From a virus (lineage: Duplodnaviria; Heunggongvirae; Uroviricota; Caudoviricetes): 64,000 nucleotides of DNA. The first letter of the stretch is position 1. Each line of letters begins with the position of its first letter. Below, one piece after another: positions 21-42,622 of the stretch. Both the position numbers and the translations under genes were made by a program. The DNA lies in IMG/VR virus record IMGVR_UViG_3300042301_002383, positions 3,322 through 67,321 of that record. One strand, 5' to 3'. The notes beneath the pieces were generated by a model. That model was given only the letters and a program-made list of their open reading frames with translations. It did no database searches and had not been told where the DNA came from.

Positions 21-341
21 ATGGACACTTTGTTCACTTCCCAAATCGAAAAAACTCTAAATTCCAATGTGGAGTTTGAGTTCTCCTTGGACTTCCAAGG
101 TCAAGTTGAATACATTGAGTCGGAGAACACCGACCAATTTTTGGAGTACGAACTCGTACTTCTATTCCTTGTTGAAAAGGATTTGATTCCTATCAACGAG
201 AGAACCGAAGGAGTTGTCACCATCGAGAATGGTGTTGTTGAAATTTTCTACAAGACTTGTACCCAAGTCGGTGAGGATTGGAATGATGATGTGTGGGATG
301 AAAAAACTTCCGAACATTCAGTACAAGATTTGTTGGTGTAA
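21..341 (+). CDS. hypothetical acidic early protein
   Basis: 106-aa ORF with ATG at 21; terminator-like hairpin+T-run follows at ~364-392; no recognisable motif. Confidence 0.5.
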   Translation: MDTLFTSQIEKTLNSNVEFEFSLDFQGQVEYIESENTDQFLEYELVLLFLVEKDLIPINERTEGVVTIENGVVEIFYKTCTQVGEDWNDDVWDEKTSEHSVQDLLV

Positions 342-363
342 TAAAACCACCTACTTTAATAAG

Positions 364-392
364 ACCTCCGATTCTGTCGGGGGTTTTTTTTA
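364..392 (+). terminator. rho-independent terminator (weak stem)
   Basis: CTCCGA-ttctg-TCGGGG hairpin followed by a run of 8 T. Confidence 0.45.
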
Positions 393-420
393 TGTCCAAG
401 AATTTTTCTCGACCTGATCG

Positions 421-512
421 TCCGGTAAGTTTACTGGGGTGTTTACCCAGTATTAATTCTCGGCAGGTCCCTGAACCGGTGTTCTTGTATTACCCAGTAA
501 TGTATTTGGATA
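421..512. repeat. intergenic TTACTGGGG/CCCCAGTAA palindrome module (copy in IG 342-590)
   Basis: AAGTTTACTGGGGTGTTTACCCAGTA ... GTATTACCCAGTAATG. Confidence 0.6.
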
Positions 513-529
513 CCAGGGTCAGATTTAAA

Positions 530-570
530 AAATAAATTTGGTGTATAACAATTATTGTTGTATATTTGTA
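530..570 (+). promoter_or_regulatory. Bacteroidetes-type promoter (-33 TTTGG, -7 TATATTTG)
   Basis: AAAAATAAATTTGG, then 19 nt, then TATATTTG, ending 23 nt before ATG 591; same architecture repeats before at least 7 other plus-strand genes. Confidence 0.6.
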
Positions 571-590
571 GACACTAAAAAATAAAATGT

Positions 591-860
591 ATGACACAAG
601 AAGAAATTGAAATTGTAAAGAAAACTATCTATTCAGTTGTTGAAGGACACGTTGATAGTGAAATTAATTATGAGTGGGTTGGTAGTGATTTTACCGAAAG
701 GATAATGGATAACCTACCGATTGATAAAAAAATGTCTTTCGTTAGGATTGTCCAAAATAGTGGTAGTGGTATTCAATTTGATAACGAATTGTATGTGAAG
801 TTCCTTAATCATATTACCGAATTTCTTTATAGTGGTTTGGAGTTTGAAACCAAAGAATAA
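591..860 (+). CDS. hypothetical protein
   Basis: 89-aa ORF bracketed by promoter (530-570) and terminator (877-903). Confidence 0.55.
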   Translation: MTQEEIEIVKKTIYSVVEGHVDSEINYEWVGSDFTERIMDNLPIDKKMSFVRIVQNSGSGIQFDNELYVKFLNHITEFLYSGLEFETKE

Positions 861-876
861 AATTTTTTAGATTTTA

Positions 877-903
877 ACCCTCACAGAAATGTGGGGGTTT
901 TTT
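877..903 (+). terminator. rho-independent terminator
   Basis: CCCTCACA-gaaa-TGTGGGGG hairpin + TTTTTT. Confidence 0.65.
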
Positions 904-904
904 A

Positions 905-1030
905 TGTCCACAGATTTCCCGTCCCTGATCATCCCATAAAATTACTGGGGTGTATCCGTATATATCTGTAAACGTATTCGATTCCCCAGTAATATTGGGA
1001 GCTCTGATCACAGGTGGATCCTCACCAAAA
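905..1030. repeat. intergenic module: conserved spacer GTCCACAGATTTCCCGTCCCTGATCATCCCATAA + TTACTGGGG ... CCCCAGTAAT palindrome + TGATCACAGGTGGATCC
   Basis: spacer sequence nearly identical at 2880-2915; diverged at 395-425. Confidence 0.6.
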
Positions 1031-1049
1031 AAATTAATTAGTTTTTTTT

Positions 1050-1092
1050 AAAAATAAATTTGGATTATACTCCAGATTAATTTATCTTTGTC
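1050..1092 (+). promoter_or_regulatory. Bacteroidetes-type promoter (-33 TTTGG, -7 TATCTTTG)
   Basis: AAAAATAAATTTGG ... TATCTTTG upstream of ATG 1129. Confidence 0.6.
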
Positions 1093-1128
1093 ATACAATC
1101 ATTTATTAAACCATAAAAAATTAAACAG

Positions 1129-1989
1129 ATGGAAATCGTAGAAAACAATCGGGTTAGTCAGTTCTTGGATAGAACTGGTTTAAATTGGAAAGTCCGTACC
1201 GAAGGACTTCAAACTTCGTCAGGAATTATTATCCCTGATAAAATTGGTATCGTTCGTGAGGATGATAGTACAATCTTGGGTATTCACTCTAATGGTTATG
1301 TACCATATCAGAATGACCAAATGATGGAACTATTGTTCAAAGTGTCCCAACAAACTGGACTTGATGTTCATAGGGGTGGTTTGTTCGGTGGTGGACGAAA
1401 AGTATTCGTTCAGTTAAAATCTAATGACTTAACTTTGGGGACGGATAGAATCGAGGGTTATGTTACTGGGATTAATTCTTTCGATGGTTCGACTTCATTA
1501 TCGTTCGGTCCTAGTTCGAAAACTATCAGTTGTCAAAACACATTCTTCGGTGTGTACAAAGATTTAGATTCAAAGGTACGTCATACAAAGAATATGGAAT
1601 TAAAGATAGAAGATATCTGTCGACAAATTGAGGGTGTAGTACAAGAAGAAAAGAATGTGTTCGGTTCTATCGTTAAAATGAGTGAAACTCGTTTCGATGA
1701 TATTATCAAGGATAGAGTAATCAAATCGTTATTCAATATCGAAAAGAATGTTGATATTAAGGATGTTGATTCATTATCTACCGTGACACAAAATAAATTA
1801 AGTAGATTCTATGTTGACCTTAATGGTGAAATTCAAGAAAAGGGTGATAACATTTGGGGTTTATTTAGTGGTGTAACAAAATACACAACTCATAGTATGG
1901 GTAAGGGTGACAATTCTGAAAATAAGATGTTCGGAACTTACGGAAATCGTGAGAGACAAATCTTCAAGGAACTTGTACATTTGGTGTAA
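1129..1989 (+). CDS. DUF932-like phage/plasmid protein (tentative)
   Basis: 286-aa ORF; segment GINSFDGSTSLSFG resembles the NSHDGSS core of the DUF932/TIGR03299 family, from memory only. Confidence 0.55.
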   Translation: MEIVENNRVSQFLDRTGLNWKVRTEGLQTSSGIIIPDKIGIVREDDSTILGIHSNGYVPYQNDQMMELLFKVSQQTGLDVHRGGLFGGGRKVFVQLKSNDLTLGTDRIEGYVTGINSFDGSTSLSFGPSSKTISCQNTFFGVYKDLDSKVRHTKNMELKIEDICRQIEGVVQEEKNVFGSIVKMSETRFDDIIKDRVIKSLFNIEKNVDIKDVDSLSTVTQNKLSRFYVDLNGEIQEKGDNIWGLFSGVTKYTTHSMGKGDNSENKMFGTYGNRERQIFKELVHLV

Positions 1990-2016
1990 GACATAGGTTA
2001 AAGATTATTTGTTAAA

Positions 2017-2046
2017 CCCTCGGACTTTTAGTTCGGGGGTTTTTTG
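2017..2046 (+). terminator. rho-independent terminator
   Basis: CCCTCGGAC-tttta-GTTCGGGGG (wobble pairs) + TTTTTT. Confidence 0.55.
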
Positions 2047-2084
2047 TTTGATGACCCCGTCACACTGTGGACCGGGTCGGAACT

Positions 2085-2310
2085 TTACTGGGATGTATTA
2101 CCTGTGCACTGTATCTGCACAGCACCGGTGATCAAGTTTACTGGGGTGTCCCAGTAATGTTCACCTGCGCACAGCGCCAATGTTCCTCTTGTACCCGAAG
2201 TACCACAAGTTCCTCAAAAGATGTACCACAAGTACCCGAAGTACCACATGTTCCGACAGAGTGATAAGTTTACTGGGTTATTTGTATTACCCCAGTAATG
2301 TTCCCCCTGT
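2085..2310. repeat. intergenic module with three TTACTGGG units (2087, 2136 perfect hairpin GTTTACTGGGGTGTCCCAGTAATG, 2268) flanking the 9-bp array
   Basis: seen directly. Confidence 0.6.
2192..2256 (+). repeat. tandem 9-bp array (GTACCnnAA, about 7 units)
   Basis: GTACCCGAA GTACCACAA GTTCCTCAA ... GTACCACAA GTACCCGAA GTACCACAT GTTCCGACA seen directly; gives the periodic VPQVPEVPHVP translations of spurious ORFs 2067..2264 and 2180..2362. Confidence 0.6.
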
Positions 2311-2347
2311 GATCACAGGTGAAAAAAAATTCTTAAAAAAAAGTAAA

Positions 2348-2387
2348 ATAATATTTGGATAATAAAGTTTTATGATGTATATTTGTG
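2348..2387 (+). promoter_or_regulatory. Bacteroidetes-type promoter
   Basis: TTTGG at ~2355 and TATATTTG at ~2378-2385, 24 nt before ATG 2409. Confidence 0.6.
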
Positions 2388-2408
2388 TTCACTAAAAATA
2401 TAAATGAT

Positions 2409-2831
2409 ATGAGTATGTTACAAAACATCGGAACCTATAAGGAGTTCTTGAAAAAACAAAAAGAAGAAAGAGAAACTTTCTCGGAAATTGTATCAACTAA
2501 AATCGTAGATGGTTTGACTGACTACATTAAAGATTTTGGTTGGGTTCGTAAAGGTAAAAGTGGTGGACTTCAAGGAGATAAAATCAAAGGAGTTAAGTTC
2601 ACTAAAAACTTCAATGGTAAAGATGTTACTATCGAGTATCGTAACAATTTACGAATTGACAATGACGGGTTACATTACTCGGGTGGTTATAATGAGTTCG
2701 TACATAGTAAGGAACTTGGAAATTCGTTAGAGGTAATTAGAATGAATCACTTCTATTGGAATGGGGAAACTGAAAGTGGTTGTAACTTGGATAGGGTACT
2801 TCAACGAATGGATGATTTCTATTCTAAATAG
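2409..2831 (+). CDS. hypothetical protein
   Basis: ORF-track ORF 2385..2831 starts on GTG inside the -7 box; first ATG (MSMLQNIG...) at 2409 fits the 22-24 nt promoter-to-ATG spacing seen elsewhere. Confidence 0.55.
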   Translation: MSMLQNIGTYKEFLKKQKEERETFSEIVSTKIVDGLTDYIKDFGWVRKGKSGGLQGDKIKGVKFTKNFNGKDVTIEYRNNLRIDNDGLHYSGGYNEFVHSKELGNSLEVIRMNHFYWNGETESGCNLDRVLQRMDDFYSK

Positions 2832-2853
2832 AAAACACACACCGAATTAAAGG

Positions 2854-2882
2854 GTGGGACGAAAGTCTCACCTTTTTTTATG
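2854..2882 (+). terminator. rho-independent terminator
   Basis: GGTGGGAC-gaaa-GTCTCACC + TTTTTTT. Confidence 0.65.
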
Positions 2883-3020
2883 TCCACAGATTTCTCGTCC
2901 CTGATCATCCCATAAGTTTACTGGGTTATGTTGTATTACCCCAGTAATCATTAGCCAGTTTTGCGCGCGCTGATCAGGAAATTTGCGCTGGTTAACAATT
3001 CAACCCAGTAATGTTTAGGA
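2880..3020. repeat. intergenic module (spacer + AAGTTTACTGGGTTATGTTGTATTACCCCAGTAAT + GCGCGCGCTGATCAGG + ACCCAGTAATGTTTAGG)
   Basis: seen directly. Confidence 0.6.
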
Positions 3021-3039
3021 ATGATAGTGCAGGAAAAAA

Positions 3040-3098
3040 TTCTTAAATGTGCACAGTAAAAAGTCTTAAATGTGCGCAGTAAAAAATTCTTAAAAATA
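3040..3098 (+). repeat. 2.5 direct repeats of a 24-bp unit (TCTTAAATGTGCRCAGTAAAAA) abutting the -33 element
   Basis: seen directly; candidate operator or UP element. Confidence 0.55.
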
Positions 3099-3133
3099 AA
3101 TTTGTATAATGAAATAAAAGTTATATCTTTGTC
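3094..3133 (+). promoter_or_regulatory. Bacteroidetes-type promoter
   Basis: AAAAATAAATTTG ... TATCTTTG before ATG 3154. Confidence 0.6.
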
Positions 3134-3153
3134 ATACACTAAAACAAAAAGAT

Positions 3154-3351
3154 ATGGAGTACAAAGTATTAACAAGTTCATCCCCCGAAGGATTGACCGA
3201 AAAAGTAAACAAGTACATTAACGAAGGGTTTATTCCCGTCGGTTCTCATCAAGTTGTAACCCAACGAGAAGTAAATCGTTATAGTGGTTCACAACACATG
3301 GACACACTTATTACACAAGAGTATTCTCAAACTTTAATTAAACAAGATTAA
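3154..3351 (+). CDS. hypothetical small protein
   Basis: 65-aa ORF directly after promoter. Confidence 0.5.
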   Translation: MEYKVLTSSSPEGLTEKVNKYINEGFIPVGSHQVVTQREVNRYSGSQHMDTLITQEYSQTLIKQD

Positions 3352-3352
3352 T

Positions 3353-3550
3353 ATGACAAGGTACGAAGTTTTATCCCCCGACGGGTTTACGATTGAATTC
3401 GATAGACCTTACTACACTTCAAAGGAAAAAGCATTTGAGGCTTTTGACAAATGGAAGGAACGATATAAAGTTCAAGGGTATTATAGTTCAAATAATGGAA
3501 GAATACCTTTGGAAGATTTGGAAGATTATATGTATATTCGTGAAATTTAA
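3353..3550 (+). CDS. hypothetical small protein
   Basis: 65-aa ORF, stop/start coupled (TAATATG) to previous gene. Confidence 0.5.
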   Translation: MTRYEVLSPDGFTIEFDRPYYTSKEKAFEAFDKWKERYKVQGYYSSNNGRIPLEDLEDYMYIREI

Positions 3551-3556
3551 AATTTA

Positions 3557-3658
3557 TGGAAATGAATATTTTATATTATTTATCATTGGGATTTGGGGTT
3601 ATAGTAACCTTCCTGATAATGATTGTATTACTTATTTTATCAATTAAAAAATCAATAG
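3557..3658 (+). CDS. possible 33-aa hydrophobic peptide (MEMNILYYLSLGFGVIVTFLIMIVLLILQLKNQ)
   Basis: hand-translated; single predicted TM helix; below the ORF-track cutoff; coordinates approximate. Confidence 0.25.
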
Positions 3659-3661
3659 AAA

Positions 3662-3934
3662 ATGGCACAGACCCAAACGACATTTAACTTTCATTTAGAC
3701 ACAAAGGTAACGACATGGTATCGTACCGAATTTGAAATTGAAGCTGAAACATTGGAAGAGGCTCATAAGTTAGCAATTGCTTTTCGTGAGAGAGGTGATA
3801 ACACGGAATTGCCGTGGGAACATATTGACGAAACTCTTGAAGGTTTAATACCCGAAGAAAATGGTGGAGAACCTACGGAGGAGTTGTATGACGAGAATGG
3901 TAATATAATTTGGGATAACACTAAATCAATTTAA
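3662..3934 (+). CDS. hypothetical acidic protein
   Basis: 90-aa ORF. Confidence 0.55.
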   Translation: MAQTQTTFNFHLDTKVTTWYRTEFEIEAETLEEAHKLAIAFRERGDNTELPWEHIDETLEGLIPEENGGEPTEELYDENGNIIWDNTKSI

Positions 3935-3935
3935 A

Positions 3936-4250
3936 ATGGAAAATTCAGAAATCATTAATCGTATTACGGACATCTTAAAAGTTAATGGATGTTTTAGTAT
4001 TGGAGAATTAGAAGGTGAGAATAGTATTCTTGTTGGTACATTGGGTAACTATGTAGGACTTGGGGAATATTTTACCGAAGATTATGTAGAAGTAAATGTG
4101 TACGAACCTCGTTCAAGTAGTTCGGACGCTATCGACACCTATGAAGAAAGTTATTGGGAGTTGAATGAGAATGTGTTGGGAGATGTATTACTTTTATGTG
4201 AGCAGTGGGAAGCTGAGTGTATTAGAACAGAAAAGAGAATATCGAATTAA
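3936..4250 (+). CDS. hypothetical acidic protein
   Basis: 104-aa ORF, 1-nt spacing from previous gene; terminator follows. Confidence 0.55.
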   Translation: MENSEIINRITDILKVNGCFSIGELEGENSILVGTLGNYVGLGEYFTEDYVEVNVYEPRSSSSDAIDTYEESYWELNENVLGDVLLLCEQWEAECIRTEKRISN

Positions 4251-4280
4251 TAGTTTTTAGTGTGTGGTTAGTGAATAAGA

Positions 4281-4308
4281 AGGTGGACAGAAATGTTCAC
4301 CTTTTTTT
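4281..4308 (+). terminator. rho-independent terminator
   Basis: GGTGGACA-gaaa-TGTTCACC + TTTTTTT. Confidence 0.65.
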
Positions 4309-4329
4309 ATGTATTACCCTCAGCGCAAA

Positions 4330-4450
4330 CACAGCCCGGACCAGCGCTGAAGTTTACTGGGGTGTCCCAGTAATTATTGGAGATATGATCTGCAGCGTGA
4401 TCTGCTGTTGTATTACCCCAGTAAACATGAGCATTGTTGCGCGCATGCGC
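4330..4450. repeat. intergenic module (CAGCGCTG + GAAGTTTACTGGGGTGTCCCAGTAAT + GTATTACCCCAGTAAACATG + GCGCGCATGCGC)
   Basis: seen directly. Confidence 0.6.
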
Positions 4451-4469
4451 TAACTCAAAAAAATATTTA

Positions 4470-4511
4470 AAAATAAATTTGGATTATAAAAGTATTAGTT
4501 GTATATTTGTG
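4470..4511 (+). promoter_or_regulatory. Bacteroidetes-type promoter
   Basis: AAAAATAAATTTGG ... TATATTTG before ATG 4532. Confidence 0.6.
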
Positions 4512-4531
4512 TACACTAAAAAAACAACACT

Positions 4532-4735
4532 ATGGTAAAAGTTTATTTCGAATTGGATAACGGCAAATATGCTGAACTGGTAGCAATCTTCGATGATGAA
4601 GAAACCTACGATGCGTGTCTACCCGCATTGGAAAAATTGTGTAAAAAAAACAATTTTGATTTGGTAACAGAATCGGTGGACGAAGAAACAATTACTCACT
4701 ACACTAAAAAATCAACAAATGATTTACACTACTAA
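4532..4735 (+). CDS. hypothetical small protein
   Basis: 67-aa ORF. Confidence 0.5.
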   Translation: MVKVYFELDNGKYAELVAIFDDEETYDACLPALEKLCKKNNFDLVTESVDEETITHYTKKSTNDLHY

Positions 4736-5477
4736 AGCTCAAGCAAAAAGATTAACTGGGATATCTTATTTAGGTTCCGTTAATATGACGACCAAACATC
4801 AGAAGGCATTCAAGTACGATGAACTAACATATAGTTTGTACTTAGCACCTGCAAAAATGAGTGGCTACGAGGTTTGTCCTATGAGAACGAAAGAATGTAC
4901 AAAGTTATGTTTGAACGAATCAGGGATGAACACGATGAACATGGAGGACGATAAAATTAATCGTTCACGAATTGCAAAAACTAAATTGTTTTTTGAACAC
5001 AGGGAATTTTTTGTCAATTGGTTGTTTGATGAAATTAAATCAACAGAATTGAAAGCTAAAAAACTGGGGTATAAATTTTCGGTTCGTTTGAATAACACAT
5101 CAGATATAACACCTGAATCATTTTATATTCATGTAAATGATAAACCCGTTAATATTTTACAATACTTTCAACACATTCAATTCTACGATTATACAAAGGT
5201 TCCTAAAAGAACTGAACTACTTAAAAAATATAAGAACTACGATTTAACTTTTTCTTATAGCGGTCACAATTTAAATGAGTGTCATACAATGTTAAATAAT
5301 AACATAAGGGTGGCGGTTGTTTTTAATAAAGTACCTAAAACATTTTGGGATAGGAAAGTAATCGACGGGGATCTTTACGATATGAGGTATAAAGATAAAA
5401 AGAATGTAATCGTTGGACTCAAATATAAACGAGTTCGAAATAAGTTAACAAAGAATAAATTTGTTATTGAACTTTAA
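4719..5477 (+). CDS. hypothetical protein
   Basis: 252-aa ORF overlapping previous gene by 17 nt; Cys-containing, basic C-terminus. Confidence 0.55.
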   Translation: MIYTTKAQAKRLTGISYLGSVNMTTKHQKAFKYDELTYSLYLAPAKMSGYEVCPMRTKECTKLCLNESGMNTMNMEDDKINRSRIAKTKLFFEHREFFVNWLFDEIKSTELKAKKLGYKFSVRLNNTSDITPESFYIHVNDKPVNILQYFQHIQFYDYTKVPKRTELLKKYKNYDLTFSYSGHNLNECHTMLNNNIRVAVVFNKVPKTFWDRKVIDGDLYDMRYKDKKNVIVGLKYKRVRNKLTKNKFVIEL

Positions 5478-5484
5478 TAAATGT

Positions 5485-5511
5485 CCTCACCGAAAGGTGG
5501 GGATTTTTTTT
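5485..5511 (+). terminator. rho-independent terminator
   Basis: CCTCACC-gaaa-GGTGGGG + TTTTTTTT. Confidence 0.65.
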
Positions 5512-5519
5512 GCACATTC

Positions 5520-5650
5520 TTCCGACGCAGCGCGCAACAGCGCTGAAGTTTACTGGGGTAATCCCAGTAATGTTTAGCCAGTTTTGCAGATCATGCGCCG
5601 ATCAGATCCGTATTACACCCCAGTAATGTTTAGGATTATGCATGTCGCCG
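5520..5650. repeat. intergenic module (CAGCGCTG + GAAGTTTACTGGGGTAATCCCAGTAATGTTTAG + GTATTACACCCCAGTAATGTTTAGG)
   Basis: seen directly. Confidence 0.6.
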
Positions 5651-5675
5651 GCAAATATTTTTAAAAAAAGTTTAA

Positions 5676-5714
5676 AATAAATTTGGTGGGTAATAAAAAA
5701 GTATTATCTTTGTA
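5676..5714 (+). promoter_or_regulatory. Bacteroidetes-type promoter
   Basis: TTTAAAATAAATTTGG ... TATCTTTG before ATG 5745. Confidence 0.6.
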
Positions 5715-5744
5715 CTATAATATTAATCACAAAAAAAATCTATT

Positions 5745-6197
5745 ATGGGAACTCGTTCAACTTACCGCATCATTGAGGAATACTCAACAGGTAAAAAAGT
5801 AAAAAAAGTAAAACAGAATGAAATCTGTTTAATCTATCGTCAGTACGACGGATACCCAACAGGTCATCCACTTGAAACCGCTGAATGGTTATCAACAGGG
5901 AAAGTCGTTAATGGGTATGGTGCTAATGAAAAGAAATTAGTATTCAACGGGGCTGGTTGTTTAGCGGCTCAACTCATTTGGAAATTAAAAGCTGGTGAAA
6001 CAGGAAACACCTATGTACAATCTTTGTCAAGTCGTGGAAATTCTTGGGAAGATTATCTTTATGACATTATTGTCAAAGAAGATTATTCGATTGAGTTTGT
6101 TTGTTATGAGAACGATACAACTAAAACTGAATTGTTTCGTGGTACTCCAAGCGCATTTGTTAAAAAATATAAAAAAGAAGAAGTTGAGAAAGCATAA
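5745..6197 (+). CDS. hypothetical protein
   Basis: 150-aa ORF. Confidence 0.55.
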   Translation: MGTRSTYRIIEEYSTGKKVKKVKQNEICLIYRQYDGYPTGHPLETAEWLSTGKVVNGYGANEKKLVFNGAGCLAAQLIWKLKAGETGNTYVQSLSSRGNSWEDYLYDIIVKEDYSIEFVCYENDTTKTELFRGTPSAFVKKYKKEEVEKA

Positions 6198-6231
6198 AGT
6201 TAGATTCAATCTCGGAAAGGGAGAGAATTAT

Positions 6232-6555
6232 ATGAAATGGAAAATAGAATATAACAACGGCTGGGTGAAATATTTTCATCCAGCTGAAGTTCAGTTAATA
6301 CTAACTGATTGCGTTCTGAAAAACAACAGGACAGCAGCGCAGAAGATATTTACTGGGGAAACCACCAAAGTCGTTTGTGCTTATGTTCTTTGTGAGGGAA
6401 TTGAAATCCTTACAGAAGATTTTATTCCTGAAACAACTGCACATTTAAAATACAATCCAAGAGTATTACCCTTTTGGAATTTAAACGGACAGAATGCTGA
6501 CGGAAGCGAGTACAAAGAATTGTTTACGATTGATAGTAAACTTTTCATAAAATAA
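6232..6555 (+). CDS. hypothetical protein
   Basis: in-frame ATG (MKWKIEYNNGW...) inside track ORF 5995..6555, whose 5' part overlaps 5745..6197 out of frame; purine-rich stretch just upstream. Confidence 0.5.
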   Translation: MKWKIEYNNGWVKYFHPAEVQLILTDCVLKNNRTAAQKIFTGETTKVVCAYVLCEGIEILTEDFIPETTAHLKYNPRVLPFWNLNGQNADGSEYKELFTIDSKLFIK

Positions 6556-6589
6556 TTTGGTAAAATAAAATTAAAGTTATATCTTTGTA
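6550..6589 (+). promoter_or_regulatory. Bacteroidetes-type promoter
   Basis: AATAATTTGG ... TATCTTTG before ATG 6618. Confidence 0.55.
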
Positions 6590-6617
6590 TTATTAATTCA
6601 CACTTAAATTTAAAATC

Positions 6618-7100
6618 ATGGGATTAGACATGTATCTGTACAAAAAAACTTATGTACAAAATTGGGAACACAACCCACCTGAACAACATCACCAAATCGA
6701 AATCAAACGAGGGGGTGTATTACGAACCGACATCAAACCAAATCGTATTTGTTACATTACCGAACAGGTAGCATATTGGAGAAAGTTCAATGCGCTTCAC
6801 GGATGGTTTATTAATAATTGTGGTGGTGGGGTTGATGAGTGTCAAGACATTTCTGTTGATGAAGAAAAATTGAAGGAGTTGTTGGAAACTCTAAAAGAAG
6901 TTAGTTCTAATTTCACTAAAGCTGATGAGCTTCTTCCACCAACACAGGGTTTCTTCTTTGGTAGTGATGAGGTTGATGAGTATTACAAAGAAGAAGTAAA
7001 CTCAACTATCAAAATCATTGAGGACTTGTTAGAGGAAAACGAACAATCTAAAGAATATGGATTGTACTCTGGTGAGTTTGAATACAGAGCTTCTTGGTAA
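6618..7100 (+). CDS. hypothetical protein
   Basis: 160-aa ORF, acidic C-terminus. Confidence 0.55.
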   Translation: MGLDMYLYKKTYVQNWEHNPPEQHHQIEIKRGGVLRTDIKPNRICYITEQVAYWRKFNALHGWFINNCGGGVDECQDISVDEEKLKELLETLKEVSSNFTKADELLPPTQGFFFGSDEVDEYYKEEVNSTIKIIEDLLEENEQSKEYGLYSGEFEYRASW

Positions 7101-7117
7101 AATAAAATAACGGGGAT

Positions 7118-7155
7118 ATTATTTGGAATAATAGTATCCCTGTTATATCTTTGTC
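7118..7155 (+). promoter_or_regulatory. Bacteroidetes-type promoter
   Basis: ATTTGG at ~7122, TATCTTTG at ~7146-7153. Confidence 0.55.
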
Positions 7156-7174
7156 AAATATAAATCATACTACT

Positions 7175-7825
7175 ATGCCAAATTGGTGCTACAATCACCT
7201 TACTATAAAAGGTGAAAAAGAAAACTTGGACAGAATTAAATTTCATCTTGAAGATATTGAAAAGAAGGATGATTCGTCCCCTGGTGTTTTTATGGCTCTC
7301 GTCGGTCGTGACCACGCTATTGAGTTAAATGAATACGAACACGGAGGATGGTACGACGCCAACATTAATTACTGGGGCTGTAAGTGGGATGTGTCATACA
7401 ATGAGTCGGGTGTCGAGTATAGTGACGATTCAATAACAATGTCACTCCAAACAGCTTGGTCACCACCAATAAAGTTCATTCAACACTTGGGTAGGTTATT
7501 CAATGTGGAGTGTGAGTTATATTATGAAGAACCAGGTTGTGACTTCTGTGGTAAATCCTACTTCAATAATGAGGATGGATTAACGGAGGAGGATTATTCA
7601 TATGATGAAGGTAGATTTGTTTTCGACAAGGATAATTTCTTTGAGAGCTGTGATGGTGACATTGACTATCTGTTCGAGTGTGATGAAGAAGTAACATTCG
7701 AGTCGGTGAAGGAGAGGTTTCCATTTATTACTGGGGAAGAAGACCTTGAGACATTAGAAGAAATTTTTAACGAAGTAAAAGAAAATTATGGAGAAGAAGC
7801 TGAAAGTAACAACGAGCAAATTTAA
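7175..7825 (+). CDS. highly acidic Cys-containing protein (DNA-mimic / anti-defence candidate)
   Basis: track ORF 7151..7825 starts on TTG inside the -7 box; first ATG (MPNWCYNHL...) at 7175; long D/E-rich C-terminal half. Confidence 0.55.
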   Translation: MPNWCYNHLTIKGEKENLDRIKFHLEDIEKKDDSSPGVFMALVGRDHAIELNEYEHGGWYDANINYWGCKWDVSYNESGVEYSDDSITMSLQTAWSPPIKFIQHLGRLFNVECELYYEEPGCDFCGKSYFNNEDGLTEEDYSYDEGRFVFDKDNFFESCDGDIDYLFECDEEVTFESVKERFPFITGEEDLETLEEIFNEVKENYGEEAESNNEQI

Positions 7826-8045
7826 AAATCCACTTACATTTAATGAGTGGGTAGAGAAGTATAAGGTGTCAAGCCAATATGTAGAACCAACTAAATACTT
7901 TCAAGGTAATGCTGGTTCCCCAAGAATTACTATGGACACCAAGATGGAATTCGATTCGAGTTTCCACAGACGGGATGGTAACAAATTTACTGGGATTTTA
8001 AACAAATTAAAAACAAAAATAAAATGGGTAGAGAAAATCGTTTAA
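7788..8045 (+). CDS. hypothetical protein
   Basis: 85-aa ORF overlapping previous gene by 38 nt. Confidence 0.4.
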   Translation: MEKKLKVTTSKFKNPLTFNEWVEKYKVSSQYVEPTKYFQGNAGSPRITMDTKMEFDSSFHRRDGNKFTGILNKLKTKIKWVEKIV

Positions 8046-8506
8046 CAGGGGGAGTATTCACTGAGATTGTGGGTACCCGAGATAGAATCAGTTCGTATGA
8101 TCGTTTCCTTAATGTGGACATCGATTTAAGTATTCCTCACACCGATGAGCTGGTGAAGTACTGTAATCAGTATAAGAACAGCATCCGTATGATGAAGACC
8201 AACTTCGAGATGTTAGCCAAGTTAGAAGAAATCATTATGCAACTCCGTTCTAAGGAATCAGTGGCTGATGAAATCAAACTGTCTTTGGTTCGTGAGTACA
8301 TCTACGCTCGAGCTCTATTCTATAGAGAGGGTAAAGGTACTAAGGACATTCGAGTTATCGTCGGGAAGACAGATGTGCACGGGACGGACATAGATTTACT
8401 GGGTAACAGTGTGGAGTTTATGGACTTAGCAAAGGAGAAGTTGTTAAAGGCTATGGACCTTGAGATTGATGAGAATGTTAAAGTTCTAAAAAATATTCTA
8501 GCATAA
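8024..8506 (+). CDS. hypothetical protein
   Basis: 160-aa ORF. Confidence 0.55.
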   Translation: MGRENRLTGGVFTEIVGTRDRISSYDRFLNVDIDLSIPHTDELVKYCNQYKNSIRMMKTNFEMLAKLEEIIMQLRSKESVADEIKLSLVREYIYARALFYREGKGTKDIRVIVGKTDVHGTDIDLLGNSVEFMDLAKEKLLKAMDLEIDENVKVLKNILA

Positions 8507-8562
8507 TTTGGAATATTCGAACATAAGTATTAATTTCGTATTACACTTAAACTATTAATCAT

Positions 8563-8886
8563 ATGAATTACTCTCAAGAGTTATCAAAGCTCCGTGATAT
8601 CATTCACCGAGATATCGTCCACAGAACCGTTAGGCTTAATCAAGGGGATGATTTTGAATTAGAATTAACCAGCCCGTTTTCGGTGTGGTTTACCCAAAAC
8701 TTCGACGATGACTACCAAGTCAAAGTTGCTGTTATAGGAATATGTGGTACCACAGGTGAGTTAATCACTCGAGGTATTACAGAGGATGGTTATGGTGACC
8801 TATACTATAACGATCTTACAATGGAACAGTTAGTATTCCTCCACAGACAAATCGAAACAGAATCATACACAATAAAAGTAATTTAA
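8563..8886 (+). CDS. hypothetical protein
   Basis: 107-aa ORF. Confidence 0.55.
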   Translation: MNYSQELSKLRDIIHRDIVHRTVRLNQGDDFELELTSPFSVWFTQNFDDDYQVKVAVIGICGTTGELITRGITEDGYGDLYYNDLTMEQLVFLHRQIETESYTIKVI

Positions 8887-8887
8887 A

Positions 8888-9454
8888 ATGGAAAAGATTT
8901 ATTTAGGATCAGAAGTTATGGTATCGGACCCTTATTACAGTGTCCCTACCTGGTGTCAGCATAAGTTGACAAATGTATTACCTGGTGAGTACTCCTCCAC
9001 AGCATTCAAATCGGATGACACAGGTGGTTGGGGTATGAGATGCGCAGCACTCGTTGCTGTCCATAAAGATTATGTTGAGGATGAATTAGCTTGGAGGACC
9101 GTTACATCATCAACAATTGGTGTTGACTCGGGTCAATGTGGGATATTCGATGTGGAGTCCTACAGGAATGATACCATTGCTGATGAGATAACAGCTCCTG
9201 AGTTGGGCTTTATGTTACCGTGTGATAGTGAGGGAGATAAGTGGTATGAGAAGATGTGCAGATTAACCTCAGCAGATCAACAGTGGGGATCATACAATAC
9301 TGGGGTGGTATCATCTTCAGGTTGTGGAGATGGTTCCTATCGACTTTTAGTAGCAAAACATAAGGGAAAGATAGTAGGAATCGCAATCGATTACCTAATG
9401 TTTAACCTGAAATCCATTCACTTCAATATGATTAAAACTGAAGAATTTGTTTAA
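8888..9454 (+). CDS. hypothetical Cys-rich protein
   Basis: 188-aa ORF, 1-nt spacing from previous gene. Confidence 0.55.
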   Translation: MEKIYLGSEVMVSDPYYSVPTWCQHKLTNVLPGEYSSTAFKSDDTGGWGMRCAALVAVHKDYVEDELAWRTVTSSTIGVDSGQCGIFDVESYRNDTIADEITAPELGFMLPCDSEGDKWYEKMCRLTSADQQWGSYNTGVVSSSGCGDGSYRLLVAKHKGKIVGIAIDYLMFNLKSIHFNMIKTEEFV

Positions 9455-9512
9455 GGGCTTGTTATTAGTCCTTAAACACCGTACCTTTGCGGAATTAACA
9501 AATAAAAAACAG

Positions 9513-9701
9513 ATGAAAAAGATTCACAGTAGAATTCAGCTCTCACCCAATGGTAAGTATTGGGAACGATGGGAGTCGACCGACAGAATCAATTGGAAGA
9601 TTACTCACGGACGAATGTCCTTAGAGGAGGCTCTTAAGAAACAGCAAGCCGTACTCATCCAAAATCACAGAAATCTTCTATCCGACATCCTCAGGAGGTA
9701 G
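9513..9701 (+). CDS. small AP2-like DNA-binding protein (tentative)
   Basis: internal ATG (MKKIHSRIQLSPNGKYWERWES...RMSLEEALKK) of track ORF 9447..9701; the NGK-W...LEEA pattern resembles AP2/integrase-type DNA-binding domains. Confidence 0.4.
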   Translation: MKKIHSRIQLSPNGKYWERWESTDRINWKITHGRMSLEEALKKQQAVLIQNHRNLLSDILRR

Positions 9702-9704
9702 AAG

Positions 9705-9960
9705 GTGGTACAAGTTTACTGGGGAATAAACAACAGCATATGAAAAAGTTCTTAAAAGAATTAGATTGGGTGTGGGATTACTACTTTGCAATATTCCTCT
9801 ACAACGGGAATAAGGTTTATAGGTACCATGAGTATATGACCAAGAAGTGGGGAGAACGGTATACCAACAGTGGGACCTGATCAAGGACTCGGAACATTAC
9901 TGGGGTGATTCACCTCAGGACGGGCAAAGATGGTACATGTTTACTGGGGTAAAATAGTTT
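9705..9960. repeat. three direct TTTACTGGGG copies (~9712, ~9897, ~9941) around a small ORF and between two AP2-like genes
   Basis: seen directly. Confidence 0.5.
9740..9883 (+). CDS. possible 47-aa protein (MKKFLKELDWVWDYYFAIFLYNGNKVY...)
   Basis: hand-translated, below ORF-track cutoff; flanked by TTTACTGGGG repeat copies; coordinates approximate. Confidence 0.3.
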
Positions 9961-10027
9961 GTGTAATATTTTTTTATTTGAATTTATTTTGTTATATTTT
10001 TATATAAACATTTAAATTTAAACACAA

Positions 10028-10213
10028 ATGAAAAAAACAACATCCCGTCGCACCACAGTTACTACATATGTTCCTGTGTCTGACAACATCTATCATGATG
10101 GTTCATCTTACCGTGTACGTGTAAGTGTTAATGGTACTAAGTACTCTAAGAATTTCTCTAGCAAGAGAAAGGCAGTACAGTTCCGTAACGAATTATTCTC
10201 TAAACAAGGATAA
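10028..10213 (+). CDS. small basic AP2/Arm-like DNA-binding protein (tentative)
   Basis: 61 aa; SSYRVRVSVNGTKYSKNFSSKRKAVQF resembles AP2 / integrase Arm-type beta-sheet DNA-binding domains. Confidence 0.5.
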   Translation: MKKTTSRRTTVTTYVPVSDNIYHDGSSYRVRVSVNGTKYSKNFSSKRKAVQFRNELFSKQG

Positions 10214-10237
10214 TTCCACACTTAGACTTGCATTAAG

Positions 10238-10270
10238 AGGTTCCACCACAATGGAACCTTTTTTTTTTAT
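10238..10270 (+). terminator. rho-independent terminator / attenuator
   Basis: AGGTTCCA-ccacaa-TGGAACCT hairpin + TTTTTTTTTT, between 10028..10213 and the next gene. Confidence 0.65.
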
Positions 10271-10280
10271 ATTTATTTGT

Positions 10281-11171
10281 ATGGGAAAATTTGTAAACAA
10301 ACTAGACTACGAGAGATTCGTGAAGAGTCTGAAGGGACCTTTGAAGTCATTAAATGGTGAAATATATTATGTTGCATCGGATACTCTTAGTAGTTTTGGA
10401 TGTTTCTTGAATATTGTAATACGTGAGACTCAGGTCCAACCTGATATAATATTTAAGTTGATGACCGAGCTTGCTGAGAAGTTCAAGCCTATGTATGACG
10501 AGTACATGGATCAATATGGTAGTGGGATGGGTGGAACCATGGTGAGGATCAAGGACCTATTACTTACTGGGGGATTAGATGAATTCATTGGAATTAATTT
10601 AAATAGTTCTATGGACAGTGTATTACCCGTGGAAAAACTTCAATGGGTTAAAGAAGTTCGTCAAGTAAAAACTATAATGACTTTTCTTGAAGACCCCGTG
10701 GGATTTAGATCAGTAATGGAACTTGACGACACCACCTTGGAAAGGGTTAATAGGAGTCTGAAGCAACTACAGTCTCAGAAGAACGTTCCACATAACCTTC
10801 AGGTTCATCTTGACTTCATTGAAGAGGGAACCTTTGATTTAGATATTTCCAATGGAACCAATATTTCAAACAACTTTATTAAAAATATTTACTATAAACT
10901 CCCCGAGAATATTAAACTTAAGTTTGTATGTGTTCCAGGGAACCACAACAAGATTACTGGGATGCTCGACTTCGATTGGAAATCAATCTATGTAGAATTT
11001 CCTTTATCACCTGAAGTAGGTAGAATCGTGAGAGATACCATTAGTTCAGTTTTATCAGATAAGATTAAAGAAATTCTTAAATCAAACGATTTAACCCCCG
11101 TTAACTTTTCGAGTAACTCAACCCATTATGATAAAGCCTATTTCAACTTTAGTTTTAAATGGGTAGGGTAG
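10281..11171 (+). CDS. hypothetical protein
   Basis: track ORF 10125..11171 overlaps previous gene and runs through the terminator; first ATG after the T-run (MGKFVNKLDYERF...) at 10281. An ATG at 10251 inside the hairpin is the alternative. Confidence 0.5.
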   Translation: MGKFVNKLDYERFVKSLKGPLKSLNGEIYYVASDTLSSFGCFLNIVIRETQVQPDIIFKLMTELAEKFKPMYDEYMDQYGSGMGGTMVRIKDLLLTGGLDEFIGINLNSSMDSVLPVEKLQWVKEVRQVKTIMTFLEDPVGFRSVMELDDTTLERVNRSLKQLQSQKNVPHNLQVHLDFIEEGTFDLDISNGTNISNNFIKNIYYKLPENIKLKFVCVPGNHNKITGMLDFDWKSIYVEFPLSPEVGRIVRDTISSVLSDKIKEILKSNDLTPVNFSSNSTHYDKAYFNFSFKWVG

Positions 11172-11230
11172 ACTATATTACGGGGTTCCTACGGAACCCC
11201 TTCATCCCGTACTTATTGTACTATACTAAG

Positions 11231-11261
11231 AACCCTTCGGAAAATCCCTAAGGGTTTTTTT
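11231..11261 (+). terminator. rho-independent terminator
   Basis: ACCCTT-cggaaaatccct-AAGGGT + TTTTTTT; preceded by perfect hairpin GGGGTTCC-tac-GGAACCCC at ~11181-11200. Confidence 0.55.
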
Positions 11262-11369
11262 AATTCCCATAGGATTATTCTAAGATTATCCTGAAGGGGA
11301 CCGAAGGTCCCCGTATAATAATCTGTAAAGTAAATCCCTTACAATATGTAAAGTGCCAAACAAAATGTA

Positions 11370-11450
11370 TCACCCCAGTAATATTAAAGTTGTTTGGCAA
11401 ACTATTTCCCATAGGTGGGTCACCCCAGTAATGTTTGTATTACGGTTCAG
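11370..11450. repeat. two inverted-orientation CACCCCAGTAATRTT copies inside the non-coding hairpin region
   Basis: TATCACCCCAGTAATATTAAAG ... GGTCACCCCAGTAATGTTTG. Confidence 0.5.
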
Positions 11451-12042
11451 GGATTATAGACGTATCACATTAGGACCGTATAAAAGTATTATGAGTATAC
11501 TCGGGGACCTTCGGTCCCCTTCATCCTGTATTACGAGTATTCTATTATACGGGGACACTTCGTGTCCCCTTCAGGGGGAACCTTAGGGACCGATGTATGA
11601 CACATTAATATAATATATAAAGGGTTATACTAAGACACTTGTATGACAGGGATGAAGGGAGGACTCGAAGAGTCCGACCGTAATATATAATGATATTAGG
11701 GGTATATTCTGGTAGAAAAAATAAAATGGTCTGTGATTCGCTCACGGGTCAATCCCCAGGGATATTCCTAGTAAGTGGGAAAAAGTGTTATTTTGTGGAT
11801 AAAATATACCAGAACCCAAAAATGGGATAAAAAAAGATAGTTTTAGATATATTAATTGATCACGATAACCGAACGGTAAAAAACACCGAAAAATATACGG
11901 ATATTACCGTTATAAACAGGAAAAAATTCGGGGTAAAATAAAACCCCTATGGAGGGGTTCTTAGGGGTAATTTTATAGGGGGTAATTGTACGGTCGTGAC
12001 TCCTGTCGGAGACCACGACCTTCAGAGACCTTCATGAATAAT

Positions 12043-13208: not shown

Positions 13209-13583
13209 TTAGTTAAAATCAAACGGTTCGTTTTTCTGAATATCATATGACATAAAGGTTGGTAGGTTATTAAAATAACCCTCTTTTGCCATCTGAGTCA
13301 CAAAATTTATTGCTTGTTCGTCAGATATATCCTCCTCGTCGTAATTATAATCTAATTCAACACCAACCACTTTACCATCATCCATTTTAATAATCACGTC
13401 AACGCCATCTACGTTATCATCTTTTATTCCAACCGAAATCTTATATTCACTTATACTGGCAAATGCTAAGCTGCCAATTTCCAGTTCCATATTCCCTGAT
13501 TCATTATTGTTTGGTTCCTCTTGTTCATATAGTTTCTTTATATGTTTTCTATCGGATTCTGTAATTGTGAATTTCTGTCTCAT
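13209..13583 (-). CDS. hypothetical acidic protein
   Basis: 124-aa ORF. Confidence 0.55.
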   Translation of the reverse strand: MRQKFTITESDRKHIKKLYEQEEPNNNESGNMELEIGSLAFASISEYKISVGIKDDNVDGVDVIIKMDDGKVVGVELDYNYDEEDISDEQAINFVTQMAKEGYFNNLPTFMSYDIQKNEPFDFN

Positions 13584-13660
13584 TTTTATATTATTTATTT
13601 ATAAATATCTCTTAGTTGGGTAAATGTTATTTCTGTCCTCCGGAATCCCCGTTCGCAGAT

Positions 13661-18650: not shown

Positions 18651-18826
18651 ATTTTTATTTTAAAGAAATTAACTATTCTATCTGTGAAAGGTACTTTATT
18701 CTTCTTTAACATCTCTTGATATTCCACCACTTCAATCGCCTCACTCATTAAGATTGGGGTTCCTCTTCTTACCTTATCAGACAATTCTTCAAGACGTTTG
18801 TCTGTGAGTGTTTTTCTAAATTTCAT
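18647..18826 (-). CDS. possible 59-aa protein (MKFRKTLTDKRLEELSDK...NFFKIKI)
   Basis: hand-translated ORF filling the 186-bp gap; its stop overlaps the next start as ATGA; coordinates approximate. Confidence 0.35.
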   Translation of the reverse strand: MKFRKTLTDKRLEELSDKVRRGTPILMSEAIEVVEYQEMLKKNKVPFTDRIVNFFKIKI

Positions 18827-42417: not shown

Positions 42418-42622
42418 AAATTTTGTTTTTACTAAACCAAATCATATGTGTTATTAATATTGCCAAATTAACAAACATAGTTGGGTTATTTTGTATTAGA
42501 TATCCGTAGTATAACCACATAACACAAGCGATTGCATTTACCAATCTTAGTTTCCACATTGTTTTAAATGTCATTGACAATAACACAACCGCAGACGATG
42601 CCCAACCCAGTAATTCAATCAT
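42389..42622 (-). CDS. small membrane protein
   Basis: 77 aa, 2-3 TM helices. Confidence 0.45.
   Translation of the reverse strand: MIELLGWASSAVVLLSMTFKTMWKLRLVNAIACVMWLYYGYLIQNNPTMFVNLAILITHMIWFSKNKIYEKNKAPIS

Follow-up and report, generated by a model that had tools for sequence, protein, structure and literature searches.

A repeated spacer module in the plus-strand block

We analyzed a 64-kb window of DNA from an uncultured tailed phage (Caudoviricetes; positions 3,322 to 67,321 of IMG/VR record IMGVR_UViG_3300042301_002383), in which a short word, TTACTGGG, is repeated many times among the genes at the left end. The first 11.2 kb of the window form a one-directional block of small plus-strand genes, which meets a long minus-strand block convergently at 11.2-12.0 kb; the window opens in the middle of this block, which in a related phage (L002) is ~19 kb long. 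Its genes encode DUF932, GP88 and DUF1281/Api92-like proteins and many ORFans, and beyond it the precomputed Pfam lists contain auxiliary metabolism, three DNA methyltransferases and a stand-alone DnaA domain IV protein.

Counted on both strands of the window, TTACTGGG occurs 32 times, against 1.69 +/- 1.24 copies (maximum 6) in dinucleotide shuffles. Thirty-one copies lie at or before position 11431, and the remaining one, at 42606, is the only copy in the other 52 kb; the 9-mer TTACTGGGG is present 19 times, every time within the 11.5-kb plus-strand block. The fuller form of the word is TTTACTGGGG, and its half-site can be written as (A)GTTTACTGGGG, of ~10 bp. The original prediction, made from the letters alone, had put the count at about 25 in 11.5 kb, which was too low; the enrichment and the near-confinement to the first 11.5 kb that it described both stand, and an even spread over the window was not seen. 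Among the outlying copies that it named, those at 9897 and 9941 are in place, and those given as 9712, 11375 and 11430 are at 9716, 11374(-) and 11424(-).

All six long spacers of the block (250-420 bp each, 1.8 kb in total) are modules made of a terminator, a site array and a promoter. Half-sites, pairs and palindromes in the following lines are word matches.

342-590, plus strand: module IG1, with a terminator (361-387), a diverged spacer, an imperfect palindrome (431-452) and a promoter (537-568); third half-site GTATTACCCAGTAAT at 487-501
861-1128, plus strand: module IG2, with a terminator (876-899), the 36-nt spacer (904-939), TGATCA/GGATCC and a promoter (1059-1090); wide convergent pair 942-949(+)/985-992(-)
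1990-2408, plus strand: module IG3, with a terminator (2014-2042), a plus-oriented site at 2085, TGATCA and a promoter (2354-2385); tight palindrome 2138-2157, and a wider pair 2270-2277(+)/2291-2298(-) with GTATTAC at 2284
2832-3153, plus strand: module IG4, with a terminator (2849-2876), the 36-nt spacer (2879-2914), GCGCGCGC/TGATCA and a promoter (3101-3131); pair 2918(+)/2940(-) with GTATTAC at 2933, a minus-oriented site at 3004-3011, and two CTTAAATGTGCRCAGTAAAAA repeats
4251-4531, plus strand: module IG5, with a terminator (4277-4306), GTATTAC at 4311, CAGCGCTG, two GATC, GCGCGCATGCGC and a promoter (4478-4509); tight palindrome 4354-4373, third half-site GTATTACCCCAGTAA at 4410-4424
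5478-5744, plus strand: module IG6, with a terminator (5483-5504), CAGCGCTG, three GATC and a promoter (5682-5712); tight palindrome 5550-5570, third half-site GTATTACACCCCAGTAAT at 5610-5627

Hairpin and T-run terminators are predicted in all six modules, as had been proposed. A common order of parts in all six spacers holds as a general scheme but not strictly, the spacer and palindrome parts being variable: the 36-nt spacer (ATGTCCACAGATTTCyCGTCCCTGATCATCCCATAA) is found at 904-939 and 2879-2914 but has diverged in IG1 and is missing from IG3, IG5 and IG6, and tight palindromes, claimed for every spacer, are present in IG1 (imperfect), IG3, IG5 and IG6, whereas IG2 and IG4 have wider pairs instead. 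The arms of the tight palindromes are 12-14 nt apart from start to start (431/445, imperfect; 2138/2150; 4354/4366; 5550/5563), and in terms of half-sites they read TTTACTGGGG-NN-CCCCAGTAAA, with TTTACTGGGGTGTCCCAGTAAA as the form of the window and TTTACCGGGATATCCTGGTAAA as that of the lineage L011. The third half-site, GTATTAC(C)CCAGTAAT, stands at 487, 2284, 2933, 4410 and 5610, with a copy devoid of GTATTAC at 3004, and the proximal reverse-oriented copy mostly takes the form GTATTAC-CCCAGTAAT. The post-terminator spacer starts with ATGTCCACA (904-912, 2879-2887), which resembles a relaxed DnaA box. An 11-codon reading frame in the same spacer (ATG TCC ACA ... TAA) was dismissed, as it has no promoter or ribosome-binding context.

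Each module ends in a full match to TTTG-N17-22-TAnnTTTG just upstream of the next start codon (6/6). The element AAATAAATTTGG (AAAAATAAATTTGG), which had been taken for the -7 box, does belong to the promoter but represents its -33 TTTG element with the A-tract; the -7 box itself (TAnnTTTG; here TATATTTG or TATCTTTG) lies ~20 nt downstream. Eight further matches to the same promoter type on the minus strand of the window do not have the word, and thus the word does not occur as part of the promoter. Two more promoters of the block have no adjoining site array; a hairpin with a 17-bp stem (7107-7146) encloses the -33 element of the second one, and is kept in L006 (~17400) and L002 (~15200).

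6556-6587, plus strand: Bacteroidota-type promoter by consensus match
7122-7153, plus strand: Bacteroidota-type promoter by consensus match

Outside the modules the word was found, again as word matches, at the following places.

1463-1470, plus strand: in-gene site in the DUF932 gene (codons Val-Thr-Gly)
6350-6357, plus strand: in-gene site, with the -33 element at 6556 following 206 nt downstream
7369-8403, plus strand: four in-gene sense-strand sites (7369, 7728, 7987, 8396)
9716-9948, plus strand: three plus-oriented sites (9716, 9897, 9941) upstream of a conserved AP2-like gene
10564-10961, plus strand: two in-gene sense-strand sites (10564, 10954) in a lineage-unique gene of 296 amino acids
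11374-11431, minus strand: in the convergent non-coding zone, at the block's right boundary, two minus-oriented sites with a spacing of 50 nt (TCACCCCAGTAAT)

Each of the nine copies inside genes lies on the sense strand, and the two boundary copies (11374, 11424) are oriented toward the convergent minus-strand block. A perfect inverted pair of TTGTTTGGCA, which is the word of other lineages, flanks the site at 11374 (11354-11363 / 11390-11399). The non-coding convergent zone around them (11170-12040, 870 bp) contains several GC hairpins with TTCG-type loops, such as GGGGACCTTCGGTCCCC at 11503-11519, a diverged repeat copy at 11546-11573 and two 16-nt repeats bearing minus-oriented sites; at 18822 of the lineage L013, GTATTAC is followed by a hairpin that resembles those of this zone.

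The geometry of the sites was measured from the first T of the -33 element. In L002 they cluster at about -125(+), -112(-) and -63(-), with extra plus-oriented copies at ~55-nt steps; pooling 11 lineages, plus sites are spread over -200 to -100 and minus sites over -80 to -60, and sites fill the interval from -200 to -20 with nearly none in the core promoter or the leader. L005, L006 and L007 show an additional plus site fixed at -23, -24 or -34, which in L005/L006 is at -23 or -34 in at least 14 of 20 promoters. In these last two lineages a near-invariant TTGGCAACAAAG stands 23 or 34 nt upstream of the -33 TTTG and is followed by the A-tract, and just before it there is a conserved GGTTCAGGG, which is also present at 11446 of the window.

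Within modules the plus sites come before the minus sites, and neighbouring pairs are convergent rather than divergent (12:1, 13:0 and 3:1 in three lineages). Start-to-start spacings in three lineages are tight at 12-16 or 21-25 nt, and those between copies of the same orientation are 44-64 nt, with a median of ~52-54. The 10+2+10 palindrome is shared by the window, L002, L011 and L032 (12-14 nt from start to start), and its 22 bp would be compatible with a dimer. The spacings of 16 and 21-25 nt and the isolated half-sites are conserved equally with the tight palindrome. Because the arm spacing varies and many half-sites are isolated, recognition is likely to take place at the level of the half-site and not by a rigid dimer.

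The six spacers are also set apart by palindromic four-base words. The GC-rich palindromes reported there are real, with CAGCGCTG at ~4341 and 5537, not at 4364 and 5533, and the six TGATCA copies were recovered (0.6 expected). GCGC occurs 16 times in the 1.8 kb of spacers (1.9 expected) and 4 times in the other 52 kb (35 expected), the corresponding figures for GATC being 13 (6 expected) and 35 (152 expected). GATC, GCGC, AGCT, CTAG and CGCG are all strongly depleted genome-wide, and GATC and GCGC are gathered in the six modules. The lineages L005, L006, L007, L011, L012 and L014 have zero GATC in 15-21 kb, where 40-70 would be expected; those lineages that tolerate GATC concentrate it upstream of promoters. 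The methyltransferase genes of the window are one of N6/N4 type and two of C5 type.

Conservation, word turnover and cassette exchange

Modules are present in close relatives, and the block of L002 carries 61 copies of the word over 17.6 kb. The window and L002 are 86.6% identical over 9 kb, and 19 of 20 sites have stayed intact between them, versus 50% of all 8-mers (P = 2e-5), a comparison that points to purifying selection on the sites. At its left edge the block of L002 (1560-2880) has three direct repeats of CTTAAATGTGCGCAGTAAAAAGT, two of which are also found at 3040-3090 of the window, together with a G/C-run palindrome and a 700-bp A-tract-rich region holding 11-16 copies of the word, which form runs of one orientation with a phasing of 51-57 nt.

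Relatives whose DUF932 protein is 45-66% identical do not have TTACTGGG; each of them has a hugely over-represented word of its own, and the architecture is kept while the word is swapped, the words of more distant relatives including TTACCGGG, TTACTGGA, TGACTGGC and TTGTCTGGCA. The words by lineage are:

window: TTTACTGGGG
L011: TTTACCGGGA / TTTACCAGGA
L032: TTTACTGGAT
L037: AAAACTGGAAA
L038: TGACTGGCT
L041: TTGTCTGGCA
L013: TTGTGTGGCA
L007: TTGATTGGCA
L005/L006: TTG(G/T)TTGGCG
L012: TTCTTTGGCA
L040: TTGTTTCGCA

By hand alignment of the consensus sequences these words fit one frame, TT(K)NN-TGG-NN, and very close lineages have words differing by single bases. The layout is kept exactly in L011, where a 10+2+10 palindrome, TTACCGGG/CCTGGTAA, is followed ~45-55 nt on by a third, reverse site. 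Moreover, the replacement extends into coding sequence, where the local word is found at orthologous codons of three conserved genes, for each of them in 3-4 lineages. At the Val/Leu-Thr-Gly codons of the DUF932 gene the window has GTTACTGGG, L011 has GTTACCGGG and L038 has TTGACTGGC; the position orthologous to 6350 has TTTACTGGAG in L032 and TTGTCTGGCA in L041; and the one orthologous to 8396 has TTGTCTGGCA in L041 and L013 and TTGTTTGGCA in L007, the amino acids at this site changing (LLG, LSG, LFG) to fit the local word. The intergenic slot upstream of the AP2-like gene likewise holds the local word in seven lineages (window, L032, L037, L038, L041, L013 and L012). In L012 a tandem array with a period of ~46 bp, bearing seven copies of the word of that lineage (CCTGCCAAAGAATATTCAGA...), lies at 13480-13800, directly upstream of the same gene.

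Since recombination scars, structural DNA and other elements that act in cis alone would not be rewritten in step across a genome, the site is probably read by a diverging factor. Thus we regard the turnover of the word as strong, if indirect, evidence for a co-evolving trans-acting DNA-binding factor.

Gene content changes at the same modules. Compared with L001 and L002, the window has two extra gene-plus-module units (~441-892 and ~2174-2921), and L003, L004 and L092 differ from it by other cassettes. At each of the two places L002 has a single module, which is a chimera: its left part resembles the upstream module of the window and its right part the downstream one, with the switch point at or near the TTACTGGGG element. 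By these comparisons the modules appear to be the junctions of cassette gains and losses. A comparable situation has been described in T4-type phages, in which genes are acquired, lost or exchanged by recombination between PeSL (promoter-early stem-loop) cassettes (Arbiol et al. 2010, PMC2839356). As in PeSL, the repeated intergenic unit studied here would combine a host-type promoter with a stem-loop terminator (both predicted, 6/6 modules), close relatives differ by genes gained or lost at junctions inside the modules, and the region is plastic, the flanked genes being small and, in PeSL, non-essential. Unlike PeSL, the modules are 250-420 bp long, have the terminator before the promoter and, between the two, a long array in which a lineage-specific 8-10-mer is joined by a conserved heptamer and by GATC/GCGC palindromes; furthermore, the promoter is of the Bacteroidota -33/-7 type.

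As regards the phage itself, megablast of 12 kb and tblastn of a protein of 631 amino acids gave no match among deposited phages, and DUF932 and GP88 matched phages of actinobacterial, proteobacterial and other unrelated hosts at no more than ~42% identity. In IMG/VR there are close relatives, with DUF932 proteins 96-99% identical, and others at graded distances, in contigs of up to ~330 kb; those of L001, L007, L011, L013, L014, L032, L037, L038 and L041 measure 176-334 kb. Because related contigs reach 170-330 kb, we consider it a jumbo phage of a freshwater Bacteroidota host; a Bacteroidota host, probably Flavobacteria-like, is assumed throughout, and the established promoter consensus would suggest the phylum too. 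Two short fragments of this phage, binned in a Lake Erken freshwater Bacteroidetes metagenome-assembled genome (MAG), are a weak hint in the same direction, and were the only real hits when a genome collection was scanned for the palindrome, which gave mostly single chance matches. The best link to a cultured phage is ThyA, 60% identical to that of Flavobacterium phage immuto; two 50-kb stretches of immuto held no comparable divergent or convergent block. Searching the literature for the words as strings retrieved primers and unrelated sequences only.

The cargo at 12043-64000 of the window is unusual for a phage, with PcfJ-like, NifU/Fe-S assembly, AdoMet decarboxylase, Band_7 and ThyA proteins, several glycosyltransferases and sugar-nucleotide enzymes. 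In an Alistipes MAG (gut Bacteroidales; L111, 320-360 and 1095-1165) a dense run of CCCCAGTAA and a GCACCGAAGGTGC hairpin lie beside a four-helix-bundle gene; this cluster has a GC-rich repeat context, shows no similarity to the phage and is probably unrelated.

A second word and the candidate readers

The heptamer GTATTAC, which in both the window and L011 flanks the proximal reverse site on its 5' side, behaves as a second word. It has 20 copies in the window (487-11534; for example 487, 2095, 3625, 6463, 8975 and 11528), all of them below 11.6 kb, 19 on the sense strand and about half inside genes. Both strands of the other 52 kb have none, where Markov models expect ~4.4 and 4.2, and 65 kb of non-block flanks of the relatives contain 1 copy against 15 expected. 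The sense-strand excess is seen in at least 10 lineages with different words; between the window and L002 15 of 17 copies are intact (P = 0.003), and several of those inside genes are kept at orthologous codons. We considered whether the heptamer might be a promoter of a virion RNA polymerase. A supposed resemblance to the phiKZ early-promoter consensus could not be confirmed in a literature search. In jumbo phages such promoters are ~10-nt AT-rich motifs near -10 of early starts, upstream of early operons (PMC7598289), while GTATTAC lies in coding sequence in about half of the cases and keeps no fixed distance to gene starts; in addition, the block genes have predicted host-type promoters and the window showed no phage RNA polymerase. 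This candidate was rejected.

A factor reading the lineage-specific word was sought among the proteins of the window, most of the genome lying outside it. Three of the candidates were:

10028-10213, plus strand: conserved AP2/arm-type-like protein of 61 amino acids (by structure model), encoded last or nearly last in the block and followed by its own terminator at 10235-10262
9513-9701, plus strand: fast-diverging beta-beta-beta-alpha protein family, 62 amino acids
26845-27222, minus strand: stand-alone DnaA domain IV protein of 125 amino acids (Pfam Bac_DnaA_C, E = 4e-15; RDHTT signature intact)

The AlphaFold model of the 10028-10213 protein (pLDDT 78) has strands at 15-18/21-23, 28-34 and 37-43 and a helix at 46-60, that is, a predicted three-stranded antiparallel sheet with a C-terminal helix as in AP2 and arm-type domains, from which it differs in being a stand-alone protein of 61 amino acids. 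Its best fold matches (3rmp_C, 3jtz, 7et4_G and 6sy0_B; TM 0.45-0.58, Foldseek E ~1) are arm-binding domains of P4-like and HPI integrases and AP2 domains of plants and Plasmodium. Its sequence gave no Pfam match even at E<=5 except a sub-threshold dsrm, and no sequence match in the PDB. Judged from the model, the AP2-like label given by the original prediction seems reasonable. The same prediction proposed both small proteins beside the 9716-9948 copies as binders. However, the sheet of the 10028 protein, with its DNA-facing strands, is invariant in eight lineages with differing words and in 35 metagenomic homologues, which rules it out as the specificity determinant. If it binds DNA, its target should be a conserved sequence, GTATTAC being the natural guess.

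The remaining candidates were rejected too. In the 9513-9701 family the window protein groups with that of L038, and L032 with L013/L041, contrary to the similarity of the words. The conserved protein of 160 amino acids at 8024-8506 has a confident model and no DNA-binding fold match, and the DnaA domain IV protein was found in the close lineage only, with a recognition motif (GKILNRDHT) that is invariant even in remote homologues. The product of L002:3627-4262 showed only a sub-threshold AT-hook.

Weighing the possible roles of the arrays

The reading we lean towards, with modest confidence, is that the arrays are upstream or operator sites for a putative phage-encoded, fast-diverging DNA-binding protein, which would co-ordinate the promoters of the block from within PeSL-like cassettes. 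In such a scheme the block would be a series of cassettes, each having an intrinsic terminator for the upstream gene, a site array, and a strong host sigma-A-type promoter for the downstream gene (an A-tract, the -33 TTTG, ~20 nt, and the -7 TAnnTTTG). The protein would recognise (A)GTTTACTGGGG as a half-site of ~10 bp and would occupy the 22-bp palindromes (10-bp arms, 2-bp gap) centred ~115 nt upstream of -33, looser convergent pairs, and extra half-sites about five helical turns (44-64 nt) off, including the proximal reverse site ~60 nt upstream of -33; where genes abut, the sites would be written into coding sequence. A single factor could thereby control every block promoter from upstream positions, and the mutual similarity of the modules might, as a by-product, turn them into crossover points at which cassettes are added or removed.

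The comparative evidence supports a site array tied to the promoters and read in trans, and both regulatory cassettes and multi-operator phage regulons are known kinds of system. We infer the further points, namely that the reader is a protein, that the phage encodes it and that its output is transcriptional. The proposal of operator arrays for a dimeric regulator thus survives in part: sites of a sequence-specific trans-acting factor, tied to the block promoters, agree with the selection, the turnover and the upstream-only placement, and the rigid dimer does not agree with the variable spacing. Placement outside the core promoter, together with the fixed position in L005/L006, looks more like action through an UP element or upstream region than like steric repression.

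One regulator acting at many dispersed operators, some far upstream, and co-ordinating a set of genes in this way is familiar from P1 C1, IncP KorB at its OB sites and the inverted repeats of phiC31. In these systems a genome contains 10-20 sites and the regulators are known (C1, KorB and the phiC31 repressor), the 12 palindromic operators of KorB standing at variable distances from promoters; here there are at least 60 sites in 19 kb, also in genes, and no ParB- or C1-like protein was detected.

Several points weigh against this reading. That the block is early, and that regulation is what the sites serve, we also infer. The promoters already match the host consensus and have A-tracts, so that they should need no activator, and the sites lack the overlap with the core promoter that a simple repressor would require. 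The uniform sense orientation of the in-gene copies suits a roadblock to elongation better than plain control of initiation. The single evolving frame of the words is a hand alignment, to which no statistical test was applied, and the inverted TTGTTTGGCA pair raises the possibility that two related site families coexist in the window. Finally, each of the four candidate binders (10028, 9513, 8024 and the DnaA domain IV protein) is invariant, uncorrelated with the word, devoid of a DNA-binding fold or not shared between lineages.

Among the alternatives the best placed, which we nevertheless consider unlikely, is that the sites are polar roadblocks, comparable to stoperators, at which a monomer on an asymmetric site stops polymerase arriving from one direction. 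Plus sites after terminators and within genes would then stop rightward transcription of the block, and leftward read-through from the convergent block would be stopped by the minus sites, those ahead of promoters as well as those at the right boundary. Repressors of the mycobacteriophage L5 type bind as monomers to more than 20 asymmetric 13-mers whose orientation correlates with the direction of transcription, reversal abolishing repression (PMC9283540), and the words reportedly differ between immunity groups (PMC6550527). The likeness to the stoperators of Cluster A mycobacteriophages (L5 gp71) is evident in the dozens of short asymmetric copies, some outside promoters, and in a word that differs between related phages; the sense-strand rule inside genes and the orientation of the boundary copies would fit an orientation-dependent roadblock, as do the precedence of plus over minus sites in modules and the near-absence of divergent pairs. 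On the other hand, intergenic copies are in both orientations as convergent pairs, and the tight 22-bp palindromes and five-turn phasing are foreign to stoperators. The sites are also gathered in one block instead of being spread over the genome, late operons included, they avoid core promoters, and no repressor, integrase or other temperate sign was found in the 64 kb; an immunity repressor with a helix-turn-helix and a second domain, in particular, was not detected among the window proteins with Pfam, PHROGs or the precomputed Pfam lists. The sense-strand bias is, moreover, helped by coding constraint, as CCCAGTAA makes a stop codon in one reading frame.

A more speculative and rather doubtful possibility combines the two words. 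GTATTAC would be read by the invariant AP2-like protein and the fast-evolving 10-mer by a variable partner, giving a strand-aware two-layer code by which a lytic jumbo phage marks a segment for orientation-dependent silencing or insulation. Such a code would amount to a stoperator-like logic that arose independently in Bacteroidota phages, with the lineage word as a private address keeping co-infecting relatives from cross-regulation.

The chimeric modules and the cassette differences described above, along with the PeSL precedent, could also mean that the modules are substrates of recombination with no regulator reading them, either by homology as in PeSL or as sites of a site-specific recombinase in the manner of attC. 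We find this improbable, since it leaves unexplained the fixed geometry to promoters, the conservation of in-gene half-sites and the replacement of the word at orthologous codons. No recombinase or integrase gene was seen in or beside the block, and every cassette here has its own predicted promoter, unlike integron cassettes, which are promoter-less, carry an imperfect palindrome that folds on one strand and lie beside a tyrosine-recombinase integrase. Repeats of the REP/BIME kind, in which every unit is a palindrome, copies are scattered genome-wide and a RAYT transposase is present, differ as well, the unit here being an asymmetric 8-10-mer confined to one block and also present in coding sequence; no RAYT-like gene was seen.

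A centromere-like, origin-like or architectural role, in which a ParB/KorB- or initiator-like protein loads on the arrays and any effect on promoters is secondary, had been offered as an alternative in the original prediction, and nothing specific was found in its support; it is very improbable. The dense non-coding cluster of L002 (2157-2780: 11-16 sites, A-tracts, 51-57-nt phasing), a similar one in L011 and the 46-bp tandem array of L012 would be in keeping with it, but the sites track promoters one by one at fixed distances, the precomputed Pfam lists of the window contain no ParB, Rep or partition ATPase domain, and the only DnaA-like protein has an invariant recognition motif.

Least probable of all are two further readings. 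Elements acting in RNA, with the palindromes as hairpins of read-through transcripts (nut-like, processing or stabilising), would profit from the 8-10-bp stems that the tight palindromes could form and from the conserved GTATTAC followed by a lineage-specific hairpin, which recalls lambdoid boxA/boxB; however, the palindromes should normally be untranscribed, as they follow strong intrinsic terminators and precede the next promoter, most sites are single half-sites that cannot fold, the gap between arms ranges from 2 to over 30 nt, GTATTAC is purged on both strands elsewhere than in the block, and an Rfam search returned no match at E<=1 except two at chance level. Chi-like protective sites or restriction decoys that follow host specificity, hardly credible either, would agree with the strand polarity of the in-gene copies and GTATTAC, with words that differ between lineages probably infecting different hosts and with the strong restriction pressure implied by the genome-wide depletion of GATC and GCGC, but convergent pairing, palindromes and a fixed promoter distance would not be expected of them, nor would words that differ by single bases between very close lineages.

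To our knowledge, almost nothing has been established about gene regulation in Bacteroidota phages, and less for the large uncultured ones of freshwater. The dozen related lineages described here, which share one architecture and differ in their words down to orthologous codons, constitute a natural experiment, and the polar heptamer and the gathered GATC and GCGC are leads on how such a phage might mark its first-expressed region. The cassettes also extend the idea of the mobile regulatory cassette from T4-type coliphages to phages of another phylum, and, if the operator reading is correct, such cassettes could carry a private regulatory address.

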